From an uncultured bacterium (lineage in GTDB: Bacteria > RBG-13-66-14 > B26-G2 > WVWN01), in NCBI GenBank assembly GCA_964563535.1, contig CAZLXP010000001.1, positions 423 through 64,422 of the forward strand: a stretch of DNA of 64,000 nt, written 5' to 3'. A program made the translations under genes and the position numbers. Below the pieces are notes generated by a model. It did no database searches and was not told where the DNA came from. It saw nothing but the letters and a program-made list of their open reading frames with translations. Below are positions 21,677-50,814 of the stretch, piece by piece (the stretch's first letter is position 1; every line of letters starts with the position of its first letter).

Positions 21677-21747
21677 CGTGGGTGGCGCCGGGGAGAACCC
21701 TGCACCGCTCCGCTTTTTACGGCCGCGTAGGCCGTAGAGGAGGAACC

Positions 21748-22713
21748 ATGAGGAATTATATTTCAGCAACAGCGATCGTGATAACGCTCGCGTTGACCGC
21801 GCCCGCCGTCGGCGACTGGGTCTACGAGGGCAAGTGGGGCTCGCTGGGCTCGGGTAACAGCCAGTTTAACCAACCGGCCGGCGTCGCCGTCGCCCCCGCT
21901 AGCAATAACGTCTACGTAGCCGACCAGTATAACCACCGCATCCAATACTTCACCGCCACCGGCTCCTACCTCGGCCAGTGGGGTTCGTACGGCACGGGTA
22001 ACGGCCTGTTAAATCGCCCGTACGGCTTAGTCGTCGCCCCCGCGAGCGGCAACGTCTACGTCGCTGATTTCTACAACCACCGCGTCCAATACTTCACCGC
22101 CACCGGCTCCTACCTCGGCCAGTGGGGTTCGCGCGGCTCGGGTAACGGCCAGTTTAATTGGCCGATGGGCGTCGCGGTCGCCCCCGCGAGTGGCAACGTC
22201 TACGTCACCGATGGCGGCAACAACCGCATACAATATTTCACCGCCACCGGCTCCTACCTCGGGCAGTGGGGTAGTTCCCTTTTACCGGAATTAGGCGTCG
22301 TCGTCGCCCCCGCGAGCGGTAACGTCTACGTAGCGGATTTCCGGAACAACCGCGTCCAATACTTCACCGCCACCGGCTCCTACCTCGGCCAATGGGGCTC
22401 CGTCGGCACGGGTAACGGCCAGTTCAACGGCCCGGACGACGTAGACGTCGCCCCGGGGGGCGACGTCTACATCAGCGATTACGGCAACGACCGCATCCAA
22501 TACTTCACGGCGAGCGGCTCCTACCTCGGCAAGTGGGGCTCAAGCGGGTCGGGCAACGGCCAGTTCAACCGCCCCGTCGGAGTATGTTTCAACGTCGGCG
22601 GCACGCGCTTCTACGTCGCCGAAATGTCGGGCGCACGCATCCAATATTTCAAATGGGTCAACACAACCATTGCCCCCGCCTCCCTCGGCCGTGTGAAGGC
22701 ATTATTTAAATAA
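21748..22713 (+). CDS. Secreted NHL-repeat beta-propeller protein (copy B).
   Basis: GAGGAGGAA RBS. MRNYISATAIVITLALTAPAVGDWVYEGKWGS..., six NHL blades, C-terminus ...WVNTTIAPASLGRVKALFK. Confidence 0.8.
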   Translation: MRNYISATAIVITLALTAPAVGDWVYEGKWGSLGSGNSQFNQPAGVAVAPASNNVYVADQYNHRIQYFTATGSYLGQWGSYGTGNGLLNRPYGLVVAPASGNVYVADFYNHRVQYFTATGSYLGQWGSRGSGNGQFNWPMGVAVAPASGNVYVTDGGNNRIQYFTATGSYLGQWGSSLLPELGVVVAPASGNVYVADFRNNRVQYFTATGSYLGQWGSVGTGNGQFNGPDDVDVAPGGDVYISDYGNDRIQYFTASGSYLGKWGSSGSGNGQFNRPVGVCFNVGGTRFYVAEMSGARIQYFKWVNTTIAPASLGRVKALFK

Positions 22714-23485: not shown

Positions 23486-24457
23486 TTATTTAAACAACGC
23501 CTTCACCCGGCCGAGGGAGGCGGGCGCAACGGCGTACTCCGTATCCTTGAAATATTGGACGCGGTCGTTAAGCTCGTCCGCTATATAAGCCCGGGGGCCC
23601 TTTACAGTTATACCCCCAGGTTTATTGAATTCGCCGTTACCCGTCCCGGACTTCCCCCACTTCCCGAGGAAGGACCCGGTAGCCGTGAAATACTGGACGC
23701 GGTGGTTGTTCAGGTCGGTCACGAGGACCGTTCCGTTCGGCAAAAAGGCCACGTCGCAGGGGCAATCGAACTCGCCGTCGCCGGTACCCTTCGAACCCCA
23801 CTTGCCCAGGAAGCTGCCCGCCCCCGTGAAGTATTGGACGCGGTGGTTCATAGAATCGGCTACGTAGACCTTACCGTCTAGTGAGAAACCTACGCCGTCG
23901 GGGTTATAGAATTCGCCGTCGCCGGAACCCAACGAGCCCCACTTGCCGAGGAAGGTTGCTTTCGAACCGCTCACCTTGAAGTATTGAATGCGATGGTTGC
24001 CGGTATCCGCTACGTAAATGTTACCGCCGGGCGCGACAGCTATACCCCGAGGGCCGTTGAATTCACCGTCGCCCGAACCCTGCGAGCCCCACCCGCCGAC
24101 GTACGAGCCGGTCTGGGTAAAGAACTGGACGCGATGGTTGCCCCGTTCGGTTACGTAGAGGTCGCCCCTAGACCCAGGGGCAACGCCCACCGGTTCGATA
24201 AACTGGCCGCTGCCGGTCCCAGGCGTACCCCATTTGCCCCTAAAGGACCCGTTTTCGCTGAAGTATTGGACGCGATGGTTAGTGGAATCGACGACGTAAA
24301 TTAAGCCGTTGGCGCCGACGGCGACGTCGGTGGGGATTTGGAATTCGCCATTACCCGTACCGCGCTTGCCCCATTGGCCTTCGTAGACCCAAGCTCCGTA
24401 GACCGCGGCGGCCGCCAGCGCCAAAACCGCAACCGTTAAAAATGCCCTGCGTTTCAT
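23486..24457 (-). CDS. Secreted NHL-repeat beta-propeller protein (copy C, the most divergent).
   Basis: MKRRAFLTVAVLALAAAAVYGAWVYEGQWGKRGTGNGEFQ...; six NHL blades; C-terminus ...YAVAPASLGRVKALFK. Confidence 0.8.
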   Translation of the reverse strand: MKRRAFLTVAVLALAAAAVYGAWVYEGQWGKRGTGNGEFQIPTDVAVGANGLIYVVDSTNHRVQYFSENGSFRGKWGTPGTGSGQFIEPVGVAPGSRGDLYVTERGNHRVQFFTQTGSYVGGWGSQGSGDGEFNGPRGIAVAPGGNIYVADTGNHRIQYFKVSGSKATFLGKWGSLGSGDGEFYNPDGVGFSLDGKVYVADSMNHRVQYFTGAGSFLGKWGSKGTGDGEFDCPCDVAFLPNGTVLVTDLNNHRVQYFTATGSFLGKWGKSGTGNGEFNKPGGITVKGPRAYIADELNDRVQYFKDTEYAVAPASLGRVKALFK

Positions 24458-27155: not shown

Positions 27156-30035
27156 ATGGCGATACCCGAGATAGTCGAAACCCTTGTCGCGCGGTTCGCG
27201 AGGAACCGCGACCTCTATTGCGGGAGCGGTTACAAAGAGACCCAACTCCGCCGGGAGTTCCTCGACCCGTTCTTCGAGGCGCTGGGGTGGGACGTCGATA
27301 ACAAGCGCGGCGCGTCGCCGCTGTATCAGGACGTCGTTCACGAGTACGGCACAGACGTCGAGGGTTCTCAAAAGACCGCCGACTACGCCTTCCGCGTCGG
27401 CGAGAAAGTAAAGTTTTTCGCGGAGGCCAAAAAGCCCGGTACGCGCCTCAAAGACGACCCCACGCCGGCGCTTCAACTACGGCGCTATGCCTATTCCGCA
27501 AGTTTACCCCTTTCCATTTTAACGGACTTCGAAGAGTTCGCGGTGTACGACGGCCGCGTTCCGCCGAAGAAGGCCGACGCCGCCTCCCACGCCCGGGTCT
27601 TGTATTTTACCTACGACGAGTACCCGGAACGTTGGGAGGAGATCGCGGCCGTATTCTCGCGCGACGCCGTATGGCGCGGCGACTTCGACAAGTACGCCGA
27701 AAAAGCCGTCGGGGGAAAACACGAGCCGGTAGACAAGGCGTTCTTAAAACTCCTCGAGCGCTGGCGCGACGAGCTCGCCCGCAACGTCGCGAACCGGAAC
27801 CGCGAGAAGGAGCTGGACAAGTACGAACTGAGCGGGGCGGTACAGGCCATACTCGACCGGGTAATTTTCCTGCGGGTGGCGGAGGACCGGGGCATCGAGG
27901 GCCGCAGCCGCTTAGAGGCGCTGATGACCGGGGAGAACGTTTACGGCCGCCTGGTCGAGTTGTTCCTCGAGGCGGACGACGTTTACAACTCGGGGCTCTT
28001 TCACTTCCGCGAGGAGAAAGGGCGCGCCACCGCGCGCGACGAGCTCACGCTGACGCTGCACGTAGATGACGCCGTGTTGCGGAAAATCCTCCGGGAGCTA
28101 GCCGAAAGCCCCTACGAGTTCGGCGTCGTCCCGGTGGAAATACTCGGCCAGGTTTACGAGCAGTTCCTCGGCAAGACGATATGGCTCGACGGCCGCGGCG
28201 TCCACATCGACTACAAGGCGGAGGTCCGCAAGGCCAAGGGCGTTTATTACACGCCCCAATATATAGTGGAGTACATCGTCAAAAATACGGTGGGGGAGTT
28301 GTTGAAGGGATGCAAGACGCCGACGGAGGCCGCCAAGCTGAAAGTCCTCGACCCGGCCTGCGGCTCGGGCTCGTTCCTGCTGGGCGCGTATCAGCATCTA
28401 ATTAACTGGCACCTCGAGTGGTACGTCAACGACGGCCCGGCTAAGCACGAGGGCCGCCTCGTCGCGACCGCGGGGCCCGGGCCGGCTAGCTGGCGGCTCA
28501 CCGCCGCGGCTAAGAAAGACATACTCCTTAACAACATCTACGGCGTGGACATCGACCCGCAGGCGGTGGAGGTTACGAAGCTCTCGCTTCTCCTCAAGGC
28601 TTTGGAGGGCGAGAGCCGCGAGTCCGTCGGCGCGCAGACGAAGTTCCTGCGCGAGCGGATACTACCGGATTTGGGGGACAATATCAAGTGCGGCAACTCG
28701 CTCATAGGGTCCGACTATTTTGAGGGGGGACAGACATTAATGTCTGTCCCACCGGACGAAGAAGAACGCCGCCGCGTCAACCCGTTCGACTGGGAGGTGG
28801 AGTTCGAGGAGATAATGAAGGCGGGCGGCTTCGACGCGGTGATAGGCAACCCGCCGTGGGGTAGTACTTTTTCTGAAACCGAATTAGTTTACTTCCGGAA
28901 CGCTTTTAAAACGGCAACGGGTAAGGTAATAGATTCTTACGCGGTATTTATAGAAAAAGGGTTTTTAGTAACTAGCCATTCCGGCTTCATAAGCTACATT
29001 ACACCCGATACTTTTTTACAGAAGGACGATTATTACGTCCTTCGCGATTGGTTAACAGCAGAAGCTACAGTTTTAGATTTAATAGAAGCAGGGCCGTTAT
29101 TCCGTCAAGTACGGGATACGTGGGCCGCAGTTTGGGTTATTAAAAAAGACCGGCCTACTAAAAAACATATGATAAGTCGAAAACAAATTAGTAGGTTTAT
29201 TAAATCTGTCGAGGACCGCGGGGCGGAGTTCGAAAATGCGGATTTCGATACAATTGGGAATTTTTCGCAATATAAATGGCGAGAAGACCCAGATTTAATA
29301 TTAGGGTATTTACCTACGGGTGGGGCGCAAAATATTATTAAAAGAATGTGGCCCTATCCTAGGTTAGGCGAATTAGGTGATATGTATTCTATATCACGTG
29401 GCGAAGAAGGTAGTAAGTATCGGTTAAAAACGCATAAGAAGGGTAGCTATTTTATGGTGATACCGGAGAACGTCGAAAGATATTCCCTCGAACCCGGTAT
29501 AAGCGTAGTTAGTAATACTCTAACCCCTAATAAGATAAGTTCGGTTTATTCGAAACCCAAAATTTGGATTATTAGAATACAAAAAATGAGATGGTTGCAG
29601 AGATTGGTATGTACGTTAGATACCCGGGATAATTCGGCGGGCATGAAAACTCTACAATCGATAGTATCTAACGAGGGTGATACTAAGCGATTATTATATT
29701 TATTGGGCCTCATGAATTCGAAATTATTTAATTATTGGTGCGTTAATTATTTAAGCGATGATATGAACCAGGCGTATCTTTCAAAGTTACCGATCGCCGG
29801 ATTAGATCGTTCTAACCCCGCCGATGTCGCCCGGCACGACAAGATGGTGGCGTTGGTGGAGGAGATGCTCGCGTTGCACAAACGCGTCGCCGCCGCCAAA
29901 TCGGACGCCGACAAGCAACGCCTCCAGCGCGCCATCGACGTTACGGATAAGAAGATCGATACGTTGGTTTACGAGCTCTACGGTTTGACGGATGAGGAGG
30001 TCGAAGTAGTCGAGGGAACGCAAACGAAGGTATAA
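27156..30035 (+). CDS. Type IIG restriction-modification enzyme (fused PD-(D/E)xK endonuclease + gamma-class N6-adenine methyltransferase, Eco57I/MmeI-like).
   Basis: GGAGGAGGAG RBS. N-terminus YKETQLRREFLDPFFEALGWDVDNK with a D...EAK nuclease motif (TADYAF...FFAEAKKPG). Methyltransferase motif I LDPACGSGSFLLGA, then motif IV VIGNPPWGS. The C-terminal ~65 aa (DKMVALVEEMLALHKRVAAAKSDADKQRLQRAIDVTDKKIDTLVYELYGLTDEEVEVVEG) is the unit repeated downstream. Confidence 0.85.
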   Translation: MAIPEIVETLVARFARNRDLYCGSGYKETQLRREFLDPFFEALGWDVDNKRGASPLYQDVVHEYGTDVEGSQKTADYAFRVGEKVKFFAEAKKPGTRLKDDPTPALQLRRYAYSASLPLSILTDFEEFAVYDGRVPPKKADAASHARVLYFTYDEYPERWEEIAAVFSRDAVWRGDFDKYAEKAVGGKHEPVDKAFLKLLERWRDELARNVANRNREKELDKYELSGAVQAILDRVIFLRVAEDRGIEGRSRLEALMTGENVYGRLVELFLEADDVYNSGLFHFREEKGRATARDELTLTLHVDDAVLRKILRELAESPYEFGVVPVEILGQVYEQFLGKTIWLDGRGVHIDYKAEVRKAKGVYYTPQYIVEYIVKNTVGELLKGCKTPTEAAKLKVLDPACGSGSFLLGAYQHLINWHLEWYVNDGPAKHEGRLVATAGPGPASWRLTAAAKKDILLNNIYGVDIDPQAVEVTKLSLLLKALEGESRESVGAQTKFLRERILPDLGDNIKCGNSLIGSDYFEGGQTLMSVPPDEEERRRVNPFDWEVEFEEIMKAGGFDAVIGNPPWGSTFSETELVYFRNAFKTATGKVIDSYAVFIEKGFLVTSHSGFISYITPDTFLQKDDYYVLRDWLTAEATVLDLIEAGPLFRQVRDTWAAVWVIKKDRPTKKHMISRKQISRFIKSVEDRGAEFENADFDTIGNFSQYKWREDPDLILGYLPTGGAQNIIKRMWPYPRLGELGDMYSISRGEEGSKYRLKTHKKGSYFMVIPENVERYSLEPGISVVSNTLTPNKISSVYSKPKIWIIRIQKMRWLQRLVCTLDTRDNSAGMKTLQSIVSNEGDTKRLLYLLGLMNSKLFNYWCVNYLSDDMNQAYLSKLPIAGLDRSNPADVARHDKMVALVEEMLALHKRVAAAKSDADKQRLQRAIDVTDKKIDTLVYELYGLTDEEVEVVEGTQTKV

Positions 30036-30084
30036 AGACCGTACCGGTAAATAATAAACTGGAAATAACGAAACGAGGTATGAG

Positions 30085-30918
30085 GTGGAAAACCTACCGT
30101 TAACGTTAAAGGAATATTTTAAAACCAAGGCGGTTAAAGGCATAACTATACTAAATGACGGCGCAGGGGAAACGTTCCCTCTATCCGGTGTTATTACCTA
30201 CGGCGCTATATTATTCGCCGACCTTCCGGGTTTTTCTAAACGGTTAGCCGAATACCCGGAACCCGGATACGGTTTATTCCTAGCTAACTTATTTTTCGCT
30301 TGGTTTAAAGGGGAACACGTTTATAAATTCGGCGGGTTATTAGATAAGTACATCGGGGATGAAATTATGATGGTTTTCCCTGCCGATACTTGCGACGGAT
30401 TACCCCTAAAAGCGGCTTTGTCTGCGGCGCGACGTTTTATTGATTATGACGTTTGGGATTTTAGGCCTCGCGTAGGCGTAGCGGTTGGGGATTTCGTAAT
30501 CGGTATAGTAGGACCTTTGGAAAAGGATTATGACGATAATTTTCGCTTGACCGATATAACAGCAGTCGGGAATACCGTTAATATAGCCGCTAGGTGCGTA
30601 CAAACGTTGGGGAACAATAAAACGGTTCGAGTCGCGACTTCTGATATCGAGTTAGTCCGAACCGTTTTCCCTTCACGGCCGAGTAGCAATGGAGGACACA
30701 TAAGAAGGGACGTTTGGAATATAGATGGGCCTAAAGAGGTAGAAGCGAAAAATGTTGGTTGCATTACGGTCATAGATATCGAAAACCCTTCCATTTGGGG
30801 CCCATTGATGGGATTTTCTAACGGCAAGGCCAAGGACCGGGAAACTGAATTACACGAACAATATACCCAAGGGATTAATTACGCTTTAGATAAAGGGACC
30901 GTCGTTAACGATAAATAA
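30085..30918 (+). CDS. Stand-alone class III nucleotidyl cyclase (adenylate/guanylate-cyclase catalytic-domain family), 277 aa.
   Basis: Cyclase motifs: ILFADLPGFSK, GDEIMMVF, VGVAVGDFVIGIVGP, TAVGNTVNIAARC. It has no sensor or TM domains. It sits 50 bp after the RM gene stop. Confidence 0.7.
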   Translation: MENLPLTLKEYFKTKAVKGITILNDGAGETFPLSGVITYGAILFADLPGFSKRLAEYPEPGYGLFLANLFFAWFKGEHVYKFGGLLDKYIGDEIMMVFPADTCDGLPLKAALSAARRFIDYDVWDFRPRVGVAVGDFVIGIVGPLEKDYDDNFRLTDITAVGNTVNIAARCVQTLGNNKTVRVATSDIELVRTVFPSRPSSNGGHIRRDVWNIDGPKEVEAKNVGCITVIDIENPSIWGPLMGFSNGKAKDRETELHEQYTQGINYALDKGTVVNDK

Positions 30919-30930
30919 AATTAGAGTCCC

Positions 30931-31135
30931 CTACGCCGCCCGGCACGACAAGATCGTGGCGTTGGTGGAGGAGATGCTCGAGCTGCACAAACGCGTCGTC
31001 GCCGCCAAATCCGATACGGACAAAAAACGCCTCGAGCGCGCGATAAACGCCACCGACGGCAAAATAGACGCGCTGGTCTACGAGCTATACGGTTTGAGCG
31101 AGGAAAATATAAAGACCGTAGTAAGTAAATTATAA
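30931..31135 (+). repeat. R1: direct copy of the RM-gene 3' end (about 205 bp; encodes ...RHDKIVALVEEMLELHKRVVAAKSDTDKKRLERAINATDGKIDALVYELYGLSEENIKTVVSKL plus stop). A GC hairpin follows at 31136-31158.
   Basis: Direct nucleotide alignment to 29830-30035, about 80% identity. Same orientation as the RM gene. Confidence 0.85.
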
Positions 31136-31167
31136 GGGCGGCTTTCGCCGCCCCCCATTTTTAGACC

Positions 31168-31335
31168 TTACCCGGGTTTACATTCTTCGCACGGTTTATA
31201 CCCTTGGCCTTTTGCATACGACCTTTTTACCGTACGACGGTTAATAGGTTTTATATTATCTACCCATTTACAACCGGGTTTGTGGTACCGGCTATCCTCT
31301 TGTTTATCTGTAGAGATTATTACGTCGGGGTCCAT
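31168..31335 (-). CDS. Small Ada-type zinc-ribbon domain protein (55 aa). Not in the ORF track.
   Basis: AAGGAGGTG RBS. Manual translation MDPDVIISTDKQEDSRYHKPGCKWVDNIKPINRRTVKRSYAKGQGYKPCEECKPG matches the Ada_Zn_binding pattern YH.p.C...(n)...A...GyrPC..C.P. Confidence 0.5.
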   Translation of the reverse strand: MDPDVIISTDKQEDSRYHKPGCKWVDNIKPINRRTVKRSYAKGQGYKPCEECKPG

Positions 31336-31548: not shown

Positions 31549-31657
31549 AATAACACCTCCTTCTTTTAGGTTTTTAATTACATTATAGTATTATAAAAAA
31601 AATCCGTCTAATACGCAATACATATTTCGGCATCCACCGAAGTCGTACCAACGAACG

Positions 31658-31857
31658 ACGTCGCCCGGTACGACAAGATGGTCGCGTTGGTGGAGGAGAT
31701 GCTCGCTCTCCACAAGCGCCTAAGTGTCGCCAACGCCGACGCGGATAAGAAAATGCTCCAACGCGCCATCGACGTTACGGATAAAAAGATCAACGCGCTG
31801 GTGTACGAATTATACGGTTTGACGGCTGAGGATATAAAAATTATGGAGTCGTCGTAG
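31658..31857 (+). repeat. R2: direct copy of the RM-gene 3' end (about 200 bp; ...VARYDKMVALVEEMLALHKRLSVANADADKKMLQRAIDVTDKKINALVYELYGLTAEDIKIMESS plus stop). A palindromic hairpin, GGTCTTAAGACC, follows at 31858-31884.
   Basis: Alignment to 29826-30035. Confidence 0.85.
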
Positions 31858-31946
31858 GGGACGGTCTTAAGACCGGCCCGCCTTGGGTTTTTAAGATATG
31901 TCGGGTTTGGTGGCACGGCCTAAAGGCCGCGCCCTACGAAAACCCC

Positions 31947-32037
31947 CGCCGCCACCGACCGCAAGATCGACGCGCTGGTCTACGAGCTATACGGCTTGAC
32001 CGATGAGGAGATAAAAATAGTAGAGGGTTCTATTTAA
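31947..32037 (+). repeat. R2b: short direct copy of the RM-gene 3' end (about 90 bp; AATDRKIDALVYELYGLTDEEIKIVEGSI plus stop).
   Basis: Alignment to 29940-30035. Its stop lies 4 nt before the ATG of the 32042 gene. Confidence 0.85.
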
Positions 32038-32041
32038 AACG

Positions 32042-32707
32042 ATGTTCTATGAATTAATACACTTTAAAATTAGCCCTATATTACTATTAACTCTGGGCTT
32101 ATCTTCCGAGTTTTTAGGCACCTTTTTAATTGCCGTGGACGCCGTCGCAATAAAAGAGTTCCTTTTAAAATTCCGATCCGATGTTTTTTATGAAAAACGC
32201 AGGGCCGATTTAGCGATTACTAAGTTTATTAATAGGTCTATTGCTTTTATTGTTTTCGGAACCGTTTTCGCCATAGTAACTACCGCGATTGGTTTAGATC
32301 TAGTACTTGCCTTGTTGCTCGCCCCATTAGGTTTTATTATACACCGTTTAATATCACGCATTCTTGGCCGGTTTTATTCACTAGTCCGTGTTCATCCGCC
32401 TAAATTGCGGGGGGGATGTATCTTAAAACCCTTATCGATTTTTATATGGCTATTATGGTTTATAGGCCTTTTGCTAACGTTTACCATATATATAGGTTTC
32501 GACATTGGTTTTGTTGTTGTGGTGTATGGGCTTAGCGAAAAATATTTAAAGCCTTTGGTGATAAAATTTTTCGATTATTTCAGCGAAAAGTGCATTAAGA
32601 AAGGCGAATCGTGGTTTCTTAAGTCATATATCATTACGGGGATTCTATTAATATTATTTGGGTTCTTATATCAAATTACGGGCACTATTCTAATTGCTTT
32701 ATATTAA
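32042..32707 (+). CDS. Polytopic membrane protein (about 5-6 TM helices), low GC, 221 aa.
   Basis: Hydrophobic helices ILLLTLGLSSEFLGTFLIAV, IAFIVFGTVFAIVTTAIGLDLVLALLLAPLGFII, IFIWLLWFIGLLLTFTIYIGFDIGFVVVVYG, IITGILLILFGFLYQITGTILIALY. No soluble domain recognised. Confidence 0.5.
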   Translation: MFYELIHFKISPILLLTLGLSSEFLGTFLIAVDAVAIKEFLLKFRSDVFYEKRRADLAITKFINRSIAFIVFGTVFAIVTTAIGLDLVLALLLAPLGFIIHRLISRILGRFYSLVRVHPPKLRGGCILKPLSIFIWLLWFIGLLLTFTIYIGFDIGFVVVVYGLSEKYLKPLVIKFFDYFSEKCIKKGESWFLKSYIITGILLILFGFLYQITGTILIALY

Positions 32708-32764
32708 TACCTGGTCCTATAGAAAATACGCGCTACGCGTGCCCCTCGGTCGTAACGCCGCGGC

Positions 32765-32855
32765 TGTCGCCGCGGCCCCCGATATCGACGCGCTGGTCTA
32801 TGAGCTGTACGGCCTGACCGATGAGGAGATAAGGATCGTGGAGGGGGCGAAGTAA
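32765..32855 (+). repeat. R3: short direct copy of the RM-gene 3' end (...DIDALVYELYGLTDEEIRIVEGAK plus stop).
   Basis: Alignment to 29950-30035. Confidence 0.8.
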
Positions 32856-32869
32856 AAGGAAACGGCTTT

Positions 32870-33364
32870 ATGTGGGATTGGTTACTAAAACACGTTCCCG
32901 AGTTAACCGCTTTGTCTACGGTTATTATGGCCGCGGCTACTACTATCGTAGCAGCCGCTACCGCGGTTTACGCGTTTTTAACTAATAAGTCATTAGCGCA
33001 GTCGAGGAAGGCCGTCACGGCTACCACCTTACCTTTACTCGCACTGCAGGAAGATACCTTTGGCGCTAATTACCCGCAATTAATATTCGTGAACCTGAAG
33101 AATAATGGATTTGGGCCGGCTTTAGAAATTCGACCTGAAATACAGGGGAATCCGGTCGGGTTTCATGTTTTAATTAAAAAACGTAGTTTGGGCCCGGGCG
33201 ATAGTTTAACGTTAGAAATAATAGGAGACCCCCATAAAGTAATCGATTATTCGGGAGTTTTGCGAGTTCGCGTATATTACCGGGCGATATTTGGCGTCGT
33301 ATACGAGTTATTGTTTGGTTTTTCCATTGATTCTCGCATCGTGGCTTTAATTCGCGTAGATTGA
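32870..33364 (+). CDS. Hypothetical protein with one N-terminal TM helix and a beta-rich C-terminal domain (164 aa).
   Basis: AAGGAAA RBS. N-terminal hydrophobic segment LTALSTVIMAAATTIVAAATAVYAFL. No motif recognised. Confidence 0.4.
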   Translation: MWDWLLKHVPELTALSTVIMAAATTIVAAATAVYAFLTNKSLAQSRKAVTATTLPLLALQEDTFGANYPQLIFVNLKNNGFGPALEIRPEIQGNPVGFHVLIKKRSLGPGDSLTLEIIGDPHKVIDYSGVLRVRVYYRAIFGVVYELLFGFSIDSRIVALIRVD

Positions 33365-33378
33365 AATAACGCAATATA

Positions 33379-33558
33379 GTGGCGTTGGTGGAGGAGATGC
33401 TCGCTCTCCACAAGCGCCTCGCCGCCGCCAAATCGGACGCCGACAAGAAAACGACCTAGCGCGCCATCGCCGCCACCGACCGTAAGATCGATGCCCTGGT
33501 CTACGAGCTGTACGGTTTGACGGATGAGGAGATAAGGATCTTGGAGGAATCTAGTTGA
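33379..33558 (+). repeat. R4: direct copy of the RM-gene 3' end (about 180 bp) carrying an internal TAG at 33457-33459 (...DADKKTT*RAIAATDRKIDALVYELYGLTDEEIRILEESS plus stop).
   Basis: Alignment to 29850-30035. The terminal TGA overlaps the ATG of the DUF3800 gene (ttgATGccg). Confidence 0.85.
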
Positions 33559-34277
33559 TGCCGTTATACCGGATTTATATCGACGAAGTCGGGAACCACG
33601 ACTTAAGGCACGCCGAGGATATTAATGAACGTTTCCTCTCTCTGACGGGGGTAATTATCGCCTCCGCTACTATAAGGAACGTCGTAGCCCCGGAGATGGT
33701 GCGATTAAAAGAGGAAGTGTTCGAGCCCGACCCTGACGAACCGGTAATATTTCACCGAAGGGACATCGTAAAAAGACGGGGTCCTTTTAAAATATTAGAC
33801 GAACCTGATAAACGCCGCGCTTTCGATGAAGCGTTGATAGCCGCTTTGACTCGGTGGGAATACAACGTCGTTACCGTAGTGATCGATAAACTAGCGCACC
33901 GCGACCAGTATAAAGTATGGATAGCGCACCCGTACCATTATTGCTTGCAGGTTTTGCTCGAAAGGTTTTTATTGTTTCTACAAGACCACGACGGCCATGG
34001 AGACGTCATGGTCGAAAGTCGGGGCGGTAAAGAGGATAAAAAACTAAAGGATTCCTTTCGAAGGCTATATAACCAAGGTACCGTTTGTATCGGGGCCGGT
34101 GATTTTCACCGTAGGTTTACTTCGGCCGAGTTGAAAGTAAAACCCAAAGCGGCTAACGTAGCGGGCCTTCAAATTTCAGATTTGGTTGCGTACCCCTCGC
34201 GCCGGGAAATCCTCCACGAACGGGTTTTTAAACGCCCGGAATTTCGACATTTAGCGACCGCGTGGTACGGATATTGA
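33555..34277 (+). CDS. DUF3800-family protein (240 aa).
   Basis: N-terminal LYRIYIDEVGNHDL matches the DUF3800 signature (YxIYIDESG...). The rest is a mixed alpha/beta soluble protein. Confidence 0.55.
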   Translation: MMPLYRIYIDEVGNHDLRHAEDINERFLSLTGVIIASATIRNVVAPEMVRLKEEVFEPDPDEPVIFHRRDIVKRRGPFKILDEPDKRRAFDEALIAALTRWEYNVVTVVIDKLAHRDQYKVWIAHPYHYCLQVLLERFLLFLQDHDGHGDVMVESRGGKEDKKLKDSFRRLYNQGTVCIGAGDFHRRFTSAELKVKPKAANVAGLQISDLVAYPSRREILHERVFKRPEFRHLATAWYGY

Positions 34278-34460
34278 TCGGCGGCAAATATTTACGTAGC
34301 CCGAGAACCGGGGATATATGGGGTTACGGAAAAAAGATGTTGCCGTAGAAAAAGGCCCCTTTCGGGGCCCCCGATGGACTTACCGCCCATCCACCTCCGC
34401 TAAACGGATTACTTATATAATACCCTATTACCACGAAATGTCAAGGGGTTTTTTAGCGTT

Positions 34461-34652
34461 CCCTGCCACGACACGATGGTGGCGTTGGTGGAGGATATGC
34501 TCGAGTTGCACAAGCGCCTCGCCGCCAAATCCGACGCCGACAAGCAGCGCCTCCAGCGCGCCATAAACGCCACCGACCGCAAGATCGACGCGCTGGTCTA
34601 CGAGCTGTACGGTTTGACAGATGAAGAGATAAGGATCGTGGAGGGTTCATAA
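34461..34652 (+). repeat. R5: direct copy of the RM-gene 3' end (about 190 bp; ...HDTMVALVEDMLELHKRLAAKSDADKQRLQRAINATDRKIDALVYELYGLTDEEIRIVEGS plus stop).
   Basis: Alignment to 29840-30035. The next gene's ATG lies 4 nt after a double TAA. Confidence 0.85.
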
Positions 34653-34655
34653 TAA

Positions 34656-35273
34656 ATGTTCGGGTTTATCTATTCTATAATTAAAGACGCGATCCGTTTA
34701 TTCCAATCGTTAGCCCCGGGTATTTCTATAACCTATAATGGTACAAGGTATTTCGCAAACCCGGGCCGTCTAATTTTTATGTTCAACGTAATGAATACCA
34801 AAAGAGATGACTTAAACCAATGCGCGCCTTGGTCATTAGTTATTAGTGATAAAAAGCCCGAACCGCTCGAAGCCGCGATGGCTAACTGGAATCTTAGGGA
34901 ATCACCTGATTATAATTATGAAGGCGGCGGCGGCCGTTATATTACTTTGAAAGGGAAATCCATACAAGAAGCGTGGTTCGAAATGTTTATTGACCCGGCG
35001 CCGTCGGTACAACATGGTGGTACGGAGCATTTTTTATTCCCGTTCGATGAAGATCCGGGGGATTACTTGCTTGCGTTGGTCATCTCATCCGGAAACAGCA
35101 AGTATTCTAAAGTAGTACGTTTTAAAATAAACGAGCGTATCGAACCTTACGACGATTTCGAATCGGTTATGTTTAAAACCGCGATTTCCGAAAATTTTAA
35201 GTCGAGCCTAAGGCAGCGCGCCCGGAATATTATTAAAAAAGTAGATTATTACGAATTAGTCAGGCCTTATTAA
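34656..35273 (+). CDS. Hypothetical soluble protein (205 aa).
   Basis: Intact ORF immediately 3' of R5. No motif recognised. Confidence 0.4.
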   Translation: MFGFIYSIIKDAIRLFQSLAPGISITYNGTRYFANPGRLIFMFNVMNTKRDDLNQCAPWSLVISDKKPEPLEAAMANWNLRESPDYNYEGGGGRYITLKGKSIQEAWFEMFIDPAPSVQHGGTEHFLFPFDEDPGDYLLALVISSGNSKYSKVVRFKINERIEPYDDFESVMFKTAISENFKSSLRQRARNIIKKVDYYELVRPY

Positions 35274-35321
35274 ACTTTTTTCAACGATAACGACTACCGG
35301 GCCGTTTTTTATCCGGTTTCC

Positions 35322-35369
35322 CGCCTGACCGACGAGGAGATAAAGATCGTGGAGGGGGCGGGGTCGTAG
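35322..35369 (+). repeat. R6: very short direct copy of the RM-gene 3' end (LTDEEIKIVEGAGS plus stop). A GGCCTTCAGGCC hairpin follows at 35370-35392.
   Basis: Alignment to the last ~45 nt of the RM gene. The stop-plus-hairpin is near-identical to that of R2 (tcgtaggggacggYctt..agRccggccc). Confidence 0.75.
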
Positions 35370-35422
35370 GGGACGGCCTTCAGGCCGGCCCAAAGTATCG
35401 TAATTATATAAAGGAGGAAAAA

Positions 35423-35824
35423 ATGCAGTTTCCCGACCGAACCGAGGCGATTATTATCCACGCGCGTTTGGCACGGGAAGCCGAAACGAAAGGCGATTTC
35501 GCCCTCGCGCGGTTATCTTATTTCAAATGGGTCGAATCGCTCCGGCAACAGAACGTTAACACCGGGGGCGCGTTAGAAAAGGATCTAGCTGCCGCTCAAA
35601 GGGCTTATTCCGCATTTGCGGGCCGAGACCCCCTTTACCTTAAAATATGTGGCGACGTCCTTTCCTATATCGCGAGTCATCCAGGCGTATTACAAACAGA
35701 CCTCTATAAAGAATTCCCCGCGTTTTCGCAGGAGGATTTACGGTATGCCCTCTATTTCGCGGGCGACCACGGTAAAATTAAACGCGAGAAGAAAGGTCGG
35801 ACGTATACCTTAACTGCGGCGTAA
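35423..35824 (+). CDS. Hypothetical protein (133 aa).
   Basis: AAAGGAGGAAAAAATG RBS. Co-oriented with the phosphatase-like gene 20 bp downstream. Confidence 0.4.
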   Translation: MQFPDRTEAIIIHARLAREAETKGDFALARLSYFKWVESLRQQNVNTGGALEKDLAAAQRAYSAFAGRDPLYLKICGDVLSYIASHPGVLQTDLYKEFPAFSQEDLRYALYFAGDHGKIKREKKGRTYTLTAA

Positions 35825-35843
35825 CCCGGATTCGGAGGTATTT

Positions 35844-36317
35844 ATGTTATCCGTTTGGGGAAACCTTTACGTTGGCGACGATGCCGATTGCTTTAGCGAC
35901 GAAAGGCCGGGATGGGCGGTAGTACACGCGTGCAAGAATCCCTGTCACGCGGCGGCCGTAGGTTATAGCGGTTCCCTATCATTCTCACATCCTAATTACT
36001 TACAATTGCGCTGCGGTTCACACCTTTATTTAAACCTTATAGACCCTCCGACGCCGCTATTTATACCCGCGTCGTTTAAATACGCGCTCGACTTTATTGA
36101 TGAATACATCGGCTCGCGTAAAGTCCTTATCCACTGCAACGAGGCGTTCTCCCGGGCGCCCTCCATCGCCCTTCTGTATTTAGCGAACCGCGCTAAAGTT
36201 ATAAGGGAAACTTCCTACGCGGCAGCGTGCGAGGATTTCCTTAGATTGTGCCCGGCTTATACCCCTGGGGAAGGCATACAAACTTTTCTTATTACGAATT
36301 GGGAATCCTTACGGTAA
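35844..36317 (+). CDS. Dual-specificity/tyrosine-phosphatase-like protein (CX5R P-loop).
   Basis: VLIHCNEAFSRAPSIALLYL fits the HCxxxxxR(S/T) phosphatase signature (C-N-E-A-F-S-R). Confidence 0.5.
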   Translation: MLSVWGNLYVGDDADCFSDERPGWAVVHACKNPCHAAAVGYSGSLSFSHPNYLQLRCGSHLYLNLIDPPTPLFIPASFKYALDFIDEYIGSRKVLIHCNEAFSRAPSIALLYLANRAKVIRETSYAAACEDFLRLCPAYTPGEGIQTFLITNWESLR

Positions 36318-36365
36318 TGCACCGCGAACGGTTCCGCCAGGGATAACGACTGCCTCGAGCGGGGC

Positions 36366-36461
36366 GTCGCCGCCGCCGCCACCGACCGCAAAATATACGC
36401 GCTGGTCTACGAGTTGTACGGCTTGACGGTTGAGGAGATTAAAACCGTGGAGGGGGTGTAG
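36366..36461 (+). repeat. R7: short direct copy of the RM-gene 3' end (AATDRKIYALVYELYGLTVEEIKTVEGV plus stop). A perfect palindrome, GGGCGAATGGCCATTCGCCC, follows.
   Basis: Alignment to 29940-30035. Confidence 0.8.
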
Positions 36462-36490
36462 GGGCGAATGGCCATTCGCCCCTAGCCGGG

Positions 36491-36525
36491 TTAACGCCTG
36501 AGGAGATAACGATAATAGAAATTAG
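36491..36525 (+). repeat. R8: remnant of the RM-gene 3' end (LTPEEITIIEIS).
   Basis: Matches the GLTDEEI..VEG segment. It is followed at 36531-36563 by a hairpin plus T8 terminator (GGCCTATTCATAGGCCAGTTTTTTTTATTT). Confidence 0.5.
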
Positions 36526-36577: not shown

Positions 36578-37417
36578 CTACTTGAACAACGCCTTGACGC
36601 GGCCGAGGGAGGCGGGGGCAATGGCTGTATTGACCCATTTGAAATATTGGATGCGGTGGTTGTAGGTATCCGCGACGTAGACGCGGGAGCCGCCGGCGTT
36701 GAGACACAATCCGCACGGGCCGTTGAATTGGCCGTTACCGGAGCCGCTCGAGCCCCACTTACCCACGTAGGACCCACTCGCGGTGAAGTATTGGATGCGG
36801 TTGTTACCCGAATCGGCGACGTAGACGTTACCGTCGGGGGCGACGGCGACTCCGTACGGGTAACGGAATTGGCCGTCGCCCGTGCCGTACGAGCCCCACT
36901 GGCCGATGTAGGAACCGGCCGCGTTGAAGTATTGGATGCGGTTATTTTCGCGATCGGCGACGTATACGTTGCCGCCCGGGGCGACGGCGACGCCCCACGG
37001 GTAATAGAACTGGCCGTTGCCCGTGCCGGGCGTGCCCCGCTGGCCTACGTAGGAGCCGGTGGCGGTGAAGTATTGGACGCGTTGGTTACCCCAATCGGGG
37101 ACGTAGACGTTGCCCCTGAAGGCGACGGCGATGTCCTGTGGCCAATCGAACTGGCCGTTGCCCGTGCCGTACGAGCCCCACTGGCCGAGGTAGGACCCGG
37201 TGGCCGTAAAGTATTGGATGCGGTTGTTCCACCAATCGGCGACGTAGACGTCCCCGCACGGGGCGGCGACGACGCCCGTCGGGTATTGGAACTGGCCGTT
37301 GCCCGAGCCGCCCGAGCCCCACTGCGCTTCGTAGACCCAGGCGGCGAAGGCCGCGGCCGCCAGCGTTGCCGCCGCCGCCAGCGTTGCCGCCGCTGCGATA
37401 ATTAAAACCGTTTTCAT
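36578..37417 (-). CDS. Secreted NHL-repeat beta-propeller protein (copy D, 279 aa, 5 blades).
   Basis: MKTVLIIAAAATLAAAATLAAAAFAAWVYEAQWGSGGSGNGQ...; C-terminus ...WVNTAIAPASLGRVKALFK. Confidence 0.8.
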   Translation of the reverse strand: MKTVLIIAAAATLAAAATLAAAAFAAWVYEAQWGSGGSGNGQFQYPTGVVAAPCGDVYVADWWNNRIQYFTATGSYLGQWGSYGTGNGQFDWPQDIAVAFRGNVYVPDWGNQRVQYFTATGSYVGQRGTPGTGNGQFYYPWGVAVAPGGNVYVADRENNRIQYFNAAGSYIGQWGSYGTGDGQFRYPYGVAVAPDGNVYVADSGNNRIQYFTASGSYVGKWGSSGSGNGQFNGPCGLCLNAGGSRVYVADTYNHRIQYFKWVNTAIAPASLGRVKALFK

Positions 37418-38049: not shown

Positions 38050-39009
38050 ATGAGAAACGTTCTTTTGATGGCGCTGGCGACGGCGCTCGTTGCCGCGCCC
38101 GCCTTCGCCGACTGGGTCTACGAGGGCAAGTGGGGCTCGAGCGGCTCGGGTAACGGCCAGTTTAATCAGCCGGCCGGCGTCGACGTCGCCCCCTCGAGCG
38201 ACAACATCTACGTAGCCGACCAGTATAACCACCGCATCCAATACTTCACCGCGAGTGGGTCCTACCTGGGCCAGTGGGGCTCGAGCGGCTCGGGTAACGG
38301 CCAGTTCAATCGCCCGTACGACGTAACCGTCGCCCCTGGCGGCGACGTCTACGTCGCTGACTTCTACAACCACCGCATCCAATACTTCACCTCGACCGGC
38401 TCCTACCTCGGCAAGTGGGGCTCGAACGGCTCGGGTAACGGCCTGTTCAATTACCCGATGGGCGTCACCGTCGCCCCCGCGAGCGGTAACGTCTACGTTA
38501 ATGATAGCGGCAACGGCCGCGTACAATATTTCACCGCCATCGGCTCCTACCTCGGCCAGTGGGGTAGTTCCTTATTAACGGAATGTGGCATCGCCGTCGT
38601 CCCCGCTAACGGTAACGTCTATATCGCGGATTTCAGGAACGACCGCATCCGGTACTTTACCTATAGCGGCTCCGTCCTCGGCTCGTGGGGCTCTACCGGC
38701 TCCGGGAACGGCCAGTTCGGCGGCCCGGATGACGTCGACGTCGCCCCCGGGAGCGGCGACGCATACGTCAGCGATTGGGGTAACGCCCGCATCCAATACT
38801 TCACCTCGACCGGCTCCTACCTCGGCAAGTGGGGCTCGTTCGGCTCGGGCAACGGCCAGTTCAACCGCCCATGCGGAGTATGTTTCAACGTCGGCGGCTC
38901 GCGCTTCTACGTCACCGATTTCTACAACCACCGCATCCAATATTTCAAGTGGGAAAATACGGCCATTACCCCTGCCTCTCTCGGCCGCGTGAAAGCGATT
39001 TTTAAGTAA
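38050..39009 (+). CDS. Secreted NHL-repeat beta-propeller protein (copy E; closest paralogue of copy A).
   Basis: MRNVLLMALATALVAAPAFADWVYEGKWGS...; six blades; C-terminus ...WENTAITPASLGRVKAIFK. Confidence 0.8.
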   Translation: MRNVLLMALATALVAAPAFADWVYEGKWGSSGSGNGQFNQPAGVDVAPSSDNIYVADQYNHRIQYFTASGSYLGQWGSSGSGNGQFNRPYDVTVAPGGDVYVADFYNHRIQYFTSTGSYLGKWGSNGSGNGLFNYPMGVTVAPASGNVYVNDSGNGRVQYFTAIGSYLGQWGSSLLTECGIAVVPANGNVYIADFRNDRIRYFTYSGSVLGSWGSTGSGNGQFGGPDDVDVAPGSGDAYVSDWGNARIQYFTSTGSYLGKWGSFGSGNGQFNRPCGVCFNVGGSRFYVTDFYNHRIQYFKWENTAITPASLGRVKAIFK

Positions 39010-41925: not shown

Positions 41926-43467
41926 TCACGTCAATTGCTCAAGGAAATCGCGGGCTACAATAGCGGCGTTTTGAGCTGCAATTTCTTGAAACCGGTCGTT
42001 TTTTTGCTCGTCGCCGAAATCGCTGATACCACGGATAACCAAGAACCGAGCATTACAACGGGAGCACACGGTAGCGACCCCCGCAGCTTCTATCTCTATG
42101 ACTTCGATCTTACCGTGAAGGGAATGTCTGATAGTCCGGAACTTACCAGGGTCCCGGAGGAGCTTTTCGCCGCTCGCGAATGTCGCGAGTCGTGGAACGA
42201 ATTCTTGATCAACCAATGCCTCGTCGACGTTAGGGGGAATAACGATACCCGCGGCTTTCCGAGCAATCACTAGGCGTCCTTTTACGGCCGCCGGGTTAGC
42301 CAAGTACGAGATTACGTCTTGTTTTGTCGCGTGCGGGGTCCGAAATGATTCTGGGCGAGGTACTTCGCGTGGACCGTCCGGCCCCGTCACTAACGCAGCA
42401 CCTTCGTAAGCTATAACACGTTCCGAAAACACAACTTCTCCCAAAAGGCACTTGCCACGCATCCCAGCTGCAATCCCAACCATGACTACGATCTTCGGTT
42501 TAAACTTGGTTAATAACATAGCCGTTTCCGCTGCCGCATCCACATTACCCGCGTTGCCGAAACAAGCGATTGCTACCCTCAGACTTTTTTTCGCCGCATT
42601 AACGGTAAATAAGGCTTTAAACCAGTAGTTGGTGCCAGATTCGGTTTTTTCTGGTTTCTGGTCAATCGCATCGAATACCAATAGAACCGCGCCAAGTTCG
42701 ACAGGTAATGCAGTCAATACTAACGCGTCGACCGGAGCGTTTCGCGAAGCCGCATCGAACTCGTCACCAAGCGCATCGACGGCGCCCTGGACGACGTCCG
42801 CGATACTCATTACGGGAGCCTCTAAAGAGAGACTAAGAATACGGTCGATAATACTTTGCGCTGAGTAAGGGAAGAAACGTTGGGGTTGTTCGAGCATAGC
42901 TTTGTGGAGTCCGACCGCCCCGTCGCCGTCGTTGTTATAAGAACCGATCTGGATATCCATCGGAAGAATGACTGCTCCGCCACGCCGTTGCAACTTCCAA
43001 GCCCTATCGGCGACGCCTTTCCCACCACCAATCGCGACCATCGCATCGGCACGCCGGGTCTGTTCGTCCCCTATATTCCCGCCTGTGTGCACGTTATCCG
43101 GGATTATAACTAACTCTGCCATACCATGCGCACATAAGCGACCGAGAAGCGCCCGATGCTCGTCGCTCATTTTGTGTAGGCGCGCTTTATTCGACGTCAC
43201 GACCACAACGCGGCCGGTGACCGGCTTAGACGAGTCGGAAGCAAACGCTTCGGCTACCCGTAAGATGTTCCAGTCGAATATAAGGGGTACGCCTTCCCGG
43301 TTCACGGGTTCGTTACCGCCGTAAACTACGATTCCGGCGCCTTGTTCAAGCAATGTTCTGGTTATCTTGCTGACGAAGTCGTGCGCTACAGCAAGTTTAC
43401 CCGGCTCAACCGAAAAAGACGCACTTCCGGTTAGTAAAACCGACTTGTCTTTTAGCCTACCTACCAT
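41926..43467 (-). CDS. Two-domain effector: N-terminal SLOG (Smf/DprA-LOG-like) predicted nucleotide-sensor domain fused to a C-terminal PNP/UDP-family nucleosidase (MTA/SAH-nucleosidase-like).
   Basis: N-terminal Rossmann-like Gly-rich motifs VLLTGSASFS, GIVVYGGNEP, AMVAIGGGKGVADRAW. C-terminal PNP_UDP_1 motifs DALVLTALPVELGAV, IVVMVGIAAGM, EIEAAGVATVCSRCNARFLVIRGISDFGDE. Confidence 0.6.
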   Translation of the reverse strand: MVGRLKDKSVLLTGSASFSVEPGKLAVAHDFVSKITRTLLEQGAGIVVYGGNEPVNREGVPLIFDWNILRVAEAFASDSSKPVTGRVVVVTSNKARLHKMSDEHRALLGRLCAHGMAELVIIPDNVHTGGNIGDEQTRRADAMVAIGGGKGVADRAWKLQRRGGAVILPMDIQIGSYNNDGDGAVGLHKAMLEQPQRFFPYSAQSIIDRILSLSLEAPVMSIADVVQGAVDALGDEFDAASRNAPVDALVLTALPVELGAVLLVFDAIDQKPEKTESGTNYWFKALFTVNAAKKSLRVAIACFGNAGNVDAAAETAMLLTKFKPKIVVMVGIAAGMRGKCLLGEVVFSERVIAYEGAALVTGPDGPREVPRPESFRTPHATKQDVISYLANPAAVKGRLVIARKAAGIVIPPNVDEALVDQEFVPRLATFASGEKLLRDPGKFRTIRHSLHGKIEVIEIEAAGVATVCSRCNARFLVIRGISDFGDEQKNDRFQEIAAQNAAIVARDFLEQLT

Positions 43468-43482
43468 CGAGAACGCCTTCCT

Positions 43483-44415: not shown

Positions 44416-44713
44416 CTTTACCCCTCCTAGGAGACGCGGCACGGGCCGCCGCAGACTCGGCAACGCGTATCGCGTTGTACGCGAACGGAAAAGCCCCGCA
44501 AAACGCTTCCCGGTCACCGTCTGTTGCGTATCGCCCAAGTGCGGTTTGTAGCCGTCTTAAATAGCGCAAGTTACTACGCCAAACCTTGAGGCATACGTTC
44601 GCATCGTCGATAGTAACGCAACCGGCCACAACCGCGAACTCGTTCGGCGACCCTATACCGATAGGATCGAAACTCATACGGAGCCAAGAGAGGCCGTCGA
44701 AAATATCCGCACC

Positions 44714-49273: not shown

Positions 49274-49321
49274 CTAGTAAGGGGTTTACCGGTATTTGTT
49301 CTTGGGCCTATTAAGCCGTTC

Positions 49322-49360
49322 GTGAGCCCATTATGAGCCCATTGAGCCCATTATGAGCCC
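49322..49360. repeat. Short tandem repeat (GAGCCCATT[AT] x about 3.5) in the res upstream region.
   Basis: gtgagcccattatgagcccattgagcccattatgagccc. It lies 50-90 nt 5' of the res start on the minus strand and overlaps the last 3 codons of the AlbA_2 gene. Confidence 0.7.
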
Positions 49361-50745: not shown

Positions 50746-50814
50746 GCCGGCTCCTCGAAGGGCGAGTTAATGATGGGTTTATCGACGCCGTTGCGCATCG
50801 CGATATCCGCGTTA

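Follow-up and report, generated by a model that had tools for sequence, protein, structure and literature searches.

A stand-alone class III nucleotide cyclase behind a type IIG restriction-modification gene: a candidate mobile module in a bacterial defence island

What is a nucleotide cyclase gene doing in a defence island when no gene for a receptor of its product stands beside it? This question is raised by a stretch of 64,000 nucleotides from an uncultured bacterium (contig CAZLXP010000001.1, positions 423 to 64,422), hereafter called the window, in which an open reading frame (ORF) of 277 amino acids at 30085-30918 directly follows a type IIG restriction-modification (RM) gene. An initial annotation of the locus had described this ORF as an orphan, minimal class III cyclase, similar to the signal generators of Pycsar (resistance to phages through a pyrimidine cyclase system) or of CBASS (antiphage signalling that is based on cyclic oligonucleotides), and had suggested that one of two membrane proteins encoded downstream might serve as its effector. 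Our analysis places the protein in a small, coherent, previously unnamed family of solo cyclases without a partner gene. On balance we read it, from its sequence and surroundings, as a self-contained and mobile module that would generate a signal or consume nucleoside triphosphates (NTPs), and that is probably related to defence.

The 277-aa protein is very probably an active enzyme, and its assignment to the class III cyclases holds up. It has the fold of the cyclase homology domain, its AlphaFold2 model (pLDDT 88.5) is confident throughout the core, and the motifs quoted earlier are all present, namely GDEIMMVF (residues 91-98), GVAVGDFVIGIVGP (131-144) and TAVGNTVNIAARC (159-171). The catalytic set is intact and comprises the metal-binding D46 and D92, the transition-state residues N166 and R170, the base-contact residues K88 and T158, and the phosphate-binding R129 and K222. 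In an alignment of an 11-member subclade that includes the window cyclase, D46, D92, N166 and R170 are invariant and align with the motifs of CyaC, K88 is kept in nine members, and position 158 is T or S in all 11; the possibility raised at the outset, that the metal-binding aspartates might be missing, is therefore set aside. The description of the protein as a bare catalytic domain stands in that there is no second domain, but it overlooks a family-specific N-terminal helix/hairpin of about 35 residues and a C-terminal helix (residues 249-270), the sole parts of the protein that could qualify as a regulatory or sensing element. The features peculiar to the family are the N-terminal segment TLxEYL...DG...FP.xG.E, this C-terminal helix, a conserved Trp211 and a conserved Glu93.

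When a profile built from four sequences, the cyclase and three homologues, was compared with the PDB, Spirulina CyaC was the best match (2.9e-17), followed by bPAC/OaPAC and CyaB, while the solved uridylate cyclase 7R65 scored 1.5e-6. The class IIIb adenylyl cyclases (Spirulina CyaC, PDB 1WC0/1WC1; P. aeruginosa CyaB, 3R5G) are thus the best sequence-profile match, and share with the window cyclase the same two metal-binding Asp, the Asn/Arg pair and the Lys and Thr pair. The window cyclase differs from them in that it is 19-26% identical, has no sensor or regulatory domain, possesses its own N-terminus and C-terminal helix, and lies in a mobile, defence-island, RM-cassette context instead of being a chromosomal signalling gene. 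In the profile alignment, K88 and T158 fall on the Lys and Thr of CyaC, the residues that contact adenine in the CyaC structures. Since the cyclase carries this base-contact pair of the class IIIb adenylyl cyclases, its substrate is most likely ATP, and cyclic AMP (cAMP) is its likely rather than its established product.

The gene and its immediate surroundings are laid out as follows.

27156-30035, forward strand: type IIG RM enzyme, 959 aa, intact, with an HSDR_N nuclease, Eco57I/N6_Mtase and a TaqI_C-like target recognition domain (Pfam)
28901-29821, forward strand: segment of the RM gene for the target recognition domain, 39% GC versus 61% elsewhere in the gene
29822-30035, forward strand: RM gene's 3' end, serving as reference copy of the repeat, encoding ...ARHDKMVALVEEML...LVYELYGLTDEEVEVVEG
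30036-30084, forward strand: spacer of 49 nt between the RM and cyclase genes, with a GAGG ribosome-binding site and without a terminator-like hairpin
30085-30918, forward strand: ORF of the stand-alone class III nucleotide cyclase, 277 aa, GTG start, 44.5% GC
30931-31135, forward strand: orphan copy 2 of the RM 3' end, 74% amino-acid identity to the reference, closing the cyclase cassette
31136-31153, forward strand: terminator-like, GC-rich hairpin with a T-run after it, directly 3' of copy 2

The cyclase starts 49 nt past the stop codon of the RM gene, which matches the PADLOC model REase_MTase_IIG at E=4.9e-173, and the GAGG lies 6-10 nt 5' of its GTG codon. Between the RM stop and copy 2 (30036-30930) the cyclase is the sole ORF, so that its earlier placement as the first cassette after the RM gene is confirmed by the order RM stop, 49-nt spacer, cyclase, orphan copy 2. 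The short gap without a terminator predicts that the two genes are co-transcribed, and the hairpin with its T-run at 31136-31153 is the probable end of their transcript. Read from base composition, the cyclase gene appears to be of foreign origin, having 44.5% GC against about 60% in the genome and 61% in the 5' part of the RM gene; likewise, the low GC content of its segment suggests that the target recognition domain of the RM enzyme was acquired from outside by a swap. An exact-sequence lookup of the cyclase returned no record, and a word-indexed search of 5.8 billion proteins found that its close homologues are very rare, the three real ones having 43, 40 and 31% identity.

Such rarity, together with the foreign GC content and the presence in the array of truncated repeats, one of them with an in-frame stop (33376-33546), is what would be expected if the cyclase were an inert, decaying remnant of a transfer, devoid of current function. 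We regard this as highly improbable, given that the ORF is of full length in comparison with homologues at 40-43% identity, keeps every catalytic residue, is modelled with confidence across the core, and occupies a promoter-proximal position with a ribosome-binding site.

The cyclase cassette opens a longer series. The last ~200 bp of the RM gene, encoding ...ARHDKMVALVEEML...IDTLVYELYGLTDEEVEVVEG, recur in ten full or partial copies, which are the reference and nine more on the same strand between 30931 and 36520, and these copies delimit about eight low-GC cassettes.

31656-36520, forward strand: remainder of the array past the cyclase cassette, with unrelated low-GC cassettes between copies of the RM 3' end
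31657-31854, 31954-32031 and 32784-32858, forward strand: copies of the RM 3' end
33376-33546 (the copy with the in-frame stop), 34467-34649 and 35286-35357, forward strand: copies of the RM 3' end
36333-36455 and 36482-36520, forward strand: copies of the RM 3' end

Apart from the cyclase, the cassettes hold a 55-aa antisense ORF, a 221-aa membrane protein, a 164-aa protein with a transmembrane helix and a beta-rich domain, a DUF3800 protein, a 205-aa protein, and a pair of 133 and 157 aa. DNA alignment gives the five long copies sharp boundaries on both the left and the right; GC content is 53-58% in the repeats and 35-52% in the cassettes, and the copies differ from one another by 6-39% in sequence. 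Swapping of target recognition domains was considered as the source of the repeats and rejected, because the repeat begins after that domain and the sequence upstream of it has no homology. The second cassette contains only the 55-aa antisense ORF (31168-31335, reverse strand), which has a Cys/His metal-binding motif and a weak match to Ada_Zn_binding (E=0.077), plus about 300 nt of non-coding DNA.

Several repeats are followed by GC-rich hairpins that resemble repetitive extragenic palindromes (31857-31935, 35358-35392 and 36456-36484; GTAGGGGACGGyCTTmAGrCCGGCCC, GTAGGGGCGAATGGCCATTCGCCCCTA). Genes for an IS200-like Y1 transposase were seen as a cassette in one related array (L008, 11283-11831) and embedded within the RM ORF of another (L013). 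Hairpins and Y1 genes together hint that an HUH transposase may be involved in the arrays. In a Pfam scan, neither the array nor the genes immediately upstream of it showed an integrase domain, and none was found beside the related arrays.

Is an effector encoded nearby? The two candidates put forward by the initial annotation are the following.

32042-32707, forward strand: 221-aa polytopic membrane protein, three copies of the RM 3' end away from the cyclase
32870-33364, forward strand: 164-aa protein with an N-terminal transmembrane helix and a beta-rich domain, four copies of the RM 3' end away from the cyclase

Both ORFs exist, each set apart from the cyclase by RM 3' repeats. It is also correct that no domain for binding cyclic nucleoside monophosphates (cNMPs) is evident, none being found in any cassette protein (Pfam, E<=0.1), and no PycTM, cyclic-nucleotide-binding domain (CNBD) or TIR was detected in any cassette of the window with Pfam and PADLOC. 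The two membrane proteins gave no Pfam, PADLOC or NCBIfam signal, no similarity to real PycTM by BLASTP and no CRP-like region by phmmer. For the wider comparison, 68 loci with family cyclases were collected, the metagenome scan using the subclade alignment, and 48 of them are non-redundant (the window and 47 others); no homologue of either membrane protein lies near the 47 other cyclases, and the suggestion of split effectors thus finds no backing in co-occurrence. For the 221-aa protein only two homologues are known, both on contigs shorter than 1.4 kb; its co-occurrence with the cyclase was judged from the side of the cyclase loci. We rejected it as the effector of the cyclase because it belongs to a separate cassette and an orphan family and lacks a PycTM or CNBD signature, and the 164-aa protein because it, too, belongs to a separate cassette, lacks a CNBD or PycTM signal and does not co-occur with cyclase homologues. 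The repeats that intervene differ by 6-39%, which points to separate acquisitions, and the data favour the alternative that had also been offered, namely that the cassettes are independent. The cyclase is alone in its cassette and has no conserved partner in the 48 loci, in agreement with the earlier statement that no canonical effector is adjacent, and it probably has no dedicated adjacent effector at all.

The relation to Pycsar can be judged on the cyclase itself. The best PADLOC matches of the protein are PycC models, yet they are weak and cover the generic core only (28.6 bits, 1.8e-7, where a true PycC reaches 3e-112); a PycC model is touched by 27 out of 37 family members, with 1.4e-13 as the best value in the family, and hhalign against a true PycC gives E=0.09. 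In structural comparison the solved PycC structures rank below adenylyl and guanylyl cyclases. The profile comparison that had been proposed with PycC and with adenylate and guanylate cyclases therefore upholds the class III assignment but leaves the PycC matches weak. Base contacts reported for PycC are F/R/Q for CTP (EaPycC), and Y/D/R (BcPycC) or F/K/F for UTP (PMC11224242). The window cyclase does not reproduce these sets, and its K88, T158, F44 and I90 are closer to the adenylyl cyclases, though not decisively so. With PycC it shares a single cyclase domain of class III type, a similar size and a location in a defence island, and some of its relatives adjoin a real Pycsar pair; it departs from Pycsar in lacking the adjacent receptor/effector that is part of the definition, in scoring far below true PycC, and in base contacts that match neither the CTP nor the UTP set. 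Because the receptor-effector gene is absent and membership of the PycC clade is unproven, the cyclase should not be filed as Pycsar, and is probably not a classical one.

A split Pycsar, in which the cyclase would make cCMP or cUMP and so activate a membrane protein two to three cassettes downstream or another effector of the island, is nevertheless worth weighing. The PycC models among the best matches speak for it, as does the nature of the PycTM effectors (PF18967), which are small proteins of the membrane and have no Pfam CNBD; moreover, a 4-TM protein is encoded upstream of one relative (L001/L002), and a family cyclase directly follows a genuine PycC-PycTM pair in three to four loci (L137, L140/141 and L160). 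These points are met by the core-only character of the PycC matches, by the greater structural distance of the solved PycCs as compared with adenylyl and guanylyl cyclases, by the lack of PycTM, CNBD or PADLOC signal in membrane proteins that have no homologues near other family cyclases, by the three to four differing repeats that intervene and suggest separate acquisitions, and by the observation that multi-gene systems in comparable arrays keep to one cassette (L013/L014). We consider a split Pycsar unlikely.

As to the family, 80 out of 1.84 billion representatives reached E<=1e-30 when all were searched with the profile, and about 60 of these are 160-300 aa long and match the whole profile, including the family-specific N-terminus; weaker matches grade into generic multidomain cyclases. 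The solo family thus comprises tens of clusters at 50% identity, with proteins of about 245-290 aa. No name for it exists in Pfam, NCBIfam, PADLOC or the PDB, and the window cyclase itself has no NCBIfam match. On viral contigs (IMG/VR) no member of the solo family was found, only multidomain cyclases that match the core at about 80 bits, and 50,697 phage records gave no match either, so that a phage origin or an anti-defence role of the cyclase was rejected. Plasmid matches are generic multidomain cyclases, such as a 579-aa protein of Skermanella.

The neighbours of these cyclases were compared by all-vs-all BLAST of 530 neighbouring ORFs from the 68 loci, and no neighbour family occurs in more than four of the 48 non-redundant ones. 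The 135 closest neighbours were also scanned with domain models, and among the Pfam families listed (25 of 58) the commonest class is defence genes. RM methyltransferases recur (Eco57I/N6_Mtase, type I, mad2), accompanied by TIR_2 (3), Schlafen/AlbA_2 (2), Shedu, DUF4238 and an N6_N4 methylase; type I, II and IIG methyltransferases are all represented. Individual loci carry a type I RM with a Panacea toxin-antitoxin pair (L003), a type I RM (L006), an integrase with a PLD-helicase and a Schlafen-like helicase (L097), and an integrase with Ymh and ApeA (L105), while further loci have a RiboL-PSP HEPN protein, a coiled-coil TIR protein, an HNH protein, a terminase, AbiE, a TnsA-like protein and Shedu. 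The neighbourhoods are enriched in defence and mobile-element genes, and the nearer relatives (30-43% identity) lie mostly in variable regions rich in both. The concern that homologues might prove to be consistently housekeeping and never defence-linked is answered by these loci, where a defence link is frequent. The tightest recurrent partners are each confined to a few loci: Schlafen/AlbA_2 (L134/L147), a coiled-coil TIR protein (L108) and PycC-PycTM (L137/L140).

Three of these pairings merit a description of their own. A genuine PycC and PycTM pair stands beside a family cyclase in two to three loci, in the order PycC, PycTM, family cyclase (L137, 2236-4555; L140, 6427-8777; L160; PycC by PADLOC at 3e-112, PycTM as PF18967), and the trio may be either a variant of Pycsar that includes a second cyclase or mere co-location. 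In L134 (6748-8711) and L147 (412-2524), which are not redundant, the cyclase overlaps start to stop with a gene for a Schlafen/AlbA_2-domain protein, in an order reversed between the two, and together they form a possible two-gene module. In L108 (4915-9654), a type IIG RM homologue is followed by a solo cyclase and, after a gap of 53 nt, by a 286-aa coiled-coil and TIR protein; the latter is not PycTIR, as it has no CNBD, yet this is the tightest cyclase-TIR pairing among the loci.

The association with the RM 3' end is not limited to the window. In 436,680 nt of cyclase loci the strict pattern ...LVYELYGLT..E occurs 10 times, always on the cyclase strand, with seven occurrences in the window and one each in L108, L110 and L147. 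In L108 the motif ends an intact 965-aa RM homologue (42% identity), and the cyclase 198 nt downstream of it is 40% identical to that of the window; in L110/L112 an orphan remnant of the RM 3' end lies 27 nt upstream of the cyclase; and in L147 a full-length remnant lies 1.5 kb downstream, after the cyclase and AlbA_2 pair. Three independent lineages (window, L108, L110/L112) therefore have a cyclase directly after a type IIG RM 3' end. Furthermore, the closest relatives of the window RM gene, from Zixibacteria, Coatesbacteria and unclassified metagenome-assembled genomes, have arrays of two to three copies of the same repeat.

L008, 10001-12042; L009, 3854-5621; L010, 6422-7228; L011, 9670-10977: related arrays
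L012, 10001-10648; L013, 10001-11827; L014, 1045-3937: related arrays

Their cassettes encode a 262-aa protein, the IS200-like Y1 transposase, a 453-aa protein, a HigB-like and HTH-M78 pair, and DUF3800. Two-gene systems stay within one cassette, as the HigB-like and HTH-M78 pair does in L013/L014, and cassette ORFs often begin 4-15 nt past the stop of an orphan RM remnant. DUF3800 is a cassette in two independent arrays (window, 33555-34277; L014, 2885-3613), which supports a shared cassette pool.

Could the cyclase instead be a functional accessory of the RM enzyme, the two genes forming a module in which it tunes restriction, for example, or signals its failure? The same RM-cyclase order in the window and in L108, with similar divergence of both genes, the orphan remnant upstream of the cyclase in L110/L112, and the short spacer without a terminator would all suit such a partnership. 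Nonetheless, the closest RM relatives (L008, L009, L011, L012 and L013) carry first cassettes entirely unlike that of the window, and most family cyclases have no adjacent RM gene, others being located beside type I RM or non-RM defence genes; an accessory role is accordingly very unlikely. Because the closest RM relatives carry the same repeat with other cassettes, an obligate partnership fits the pattern less well than a shared pool of cassettes that docks at the conserved RM 3' end and in which the cyclase recurs.

Such an array invites comparison with integrons. As with integron cassettes, the units are in tandem, mostly of a single gene and compositionally foreign, and follow a fixed gene in a single orientation; copies of a recombination sequence flank each unit, and the first is likely read from an upstream promoter. 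Where an integron has the attC hairpin, the window has as its repeat ~200 bp of coding sequence from the 3' end of a type IIG RM gene. The domain scan showed no IntI-type integrase next to the array, and the borders are copies of the RM 3' end, as judged without a dedicated search for attC structures. The mechanism may be homologous recombination or an unknown recombinase acting in trans. Literature searches found no published description of cassette arrays at RM 3' ends, nor one of effector-less cyclase defence, and we know of no characterised cyclic-mononucleotide defence system that does not pair its cyclase with a dedicated receptor-effector, as Pycsar does.

Taken together, the self-contained, mobile module that we favour might operate as follows. 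The cyclase gene would have entered through recombination at the RM 3' end, as a cassette of one gene, would be transcribed from the RM promoter, and would yield a homodimer that converts an NTP to a 3',5'-cNMP. Since the gene moves between phyla without a dedicated receptor, either the receptors would be resident or the cyclase would itself be the effector. In the first case the cNMP would act via existing receptors of the recipient (CRP/CNBD-type proteins), of a kind present in almost all bacteria; in the second, the cyclase, once triggered, would drain NTP and flood the cell with cNMP. The benefit suggested by the context is defence against phages or other invaders, although a defence function, taken as a separate claim, is tentative. 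The fullest version, that of an effector-less, single-gene cNMP immune module relying on resident receptors or NTP drain, and circulating in an integron-like cassette pool stacked at type IIG RM 3' ends, where the RM coding end serves as docking site and the RM promoter drives the newest cassette, is a rather doubtful proposition.

Several observations weigh against the favoured reading. Cassettes in such arrays can be decaying passengers. The single cyclase sequence scores 20.6 bits with PF00211 (Guanylate_cyc), below the gathering cutoff of 21.9, although many of its homologues carry a precomputed match; many members of the broad family have no Asn equivalent to N166; and a conserved, family-specific Glu93 stands beside the second metal-binding Asp. 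The ATP specificity is not secure, because the clade-D uridylate cyclase AnPycC also uses a Lys at the position of K88 (K104; PMC11224242). No receptor for the product was identified among the window ORFs and the neighbours examined. A CRP-like protein, in particular, was found neither beside any family cyclase nor among the window ORFs by phmmer, a weak test with an E. coli CRP query, and a single CNBD neighbour could have escaped notice, since 25 of 58 Pfam neighbour families were listed. Finally, distant members (19-24% identity) sit in syntenic, housekeeping-looking contexts, such as between a GSDH-family (glucose/sorbosone dehydrogenase) gene and the rnf genes in Prosthecochloris, beside sulfate transporter/rubrerythrin genes, or in the order surE-pcm-cyclase-LOG-hpt, and defence is for that reason not a family-wide given.

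The last point also supports a reading in which the cyclase is an ordinary regulatory adenylyl cyclase that travels as a passenger and feeds the cAMP signalling of the host, with no defence role, the island being simply where foreign DNA accumulates. Its closeness in sequence and structure to soluble class III adenylyl cyclases, its Lys/Thr pair and the lack of a dedicated effector agree with this. Regulatory class III cyclases, however, normally carry sensor domains, of which the solo family has none; the nearer relatives lie mostly in the variable regions described above, where defence is the commonest neighbour class, and cyclases follow the type IIG RM 3' end directly in three lineages. 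We judge the passenger reading doubtful, without being far-fetched.

The surroundings in the window, which includes a defence island at about 24-62 kb, were correctly recognised as such at the start, for besides the type IIG RM it contains a type IV CBASS, a type III RM and an Avs-like STAND protein.

41926-45998, reverse strand: complete type IV CBASS, with QueC at 45396-45998 and TGT at 44714-45469
43483-44538, reverse strand: CD-NTase of the CBASS (PADLOC, 5.8e-113)
41926-43467, reverse strand: Cap17-like SLOG+PNP ATP-nucleosidase-type effector of the CBASS (3.5e-154)
46487-54425, reverse strand: type III RM, with Res at 46487-49273 and Mod at 51813-54425
49351-50745, reverse strand: pAgo/SIR2-associated-like ORF of 464 aa
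55654-62094, reverse strand: Avs1b-like STAND protein, 2146 aa, with an N-terminal Cap4-type nuclease

The CBASS lies 11 kb from the cyclase. The signal synthases of CBASS are CD-NTases of the Pol-beta type, so that the label CBASS-like is wrong at the level of the fold; the cyclase has a class III cyclase homology domain and no match to an oligonucleotide cyclase in PADLOC. What the two have in common is the logic of a nucleotide second messenger and the defence-island setting, whereas the CBASS of the window has its own cyclase and effector and can do without this gene. The Cap17-like PNP effector was accordingly rejected as an orphan receptor for the class III cyclase, since it belongs to the complete QueC-TGT-CD-NTase-effector system.

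Four paralogues with NHL-repeat beta-propellers (21682-22713, 23486-24457, 36578-37417 and 38050-39009), which share the C-terminal tail ...ASLGRVKA[LI]FK, bracket the RM cassette island, and the latter seems to have been inserted within this tandem cluster.

If partner-less cyclases do spread through defence islands, the cNMP signalling resident in a host could be taken over by a mobile gene and serve as an alarm, or the cyclase could be a toxic effector in its own right, and either mode, if true, would extend what is known of the logic behind nucleotide-based immunity. The cassette-array context is, to our mind, more interesting than the cyclase itself: docking of cassettes at an RM 3' end, if true, would be a simple route to the assembly of defence islands, and the ...LVYELYGLT..EE motif provides a practical handle with which to search uncultured phyla for candidate defence genes.

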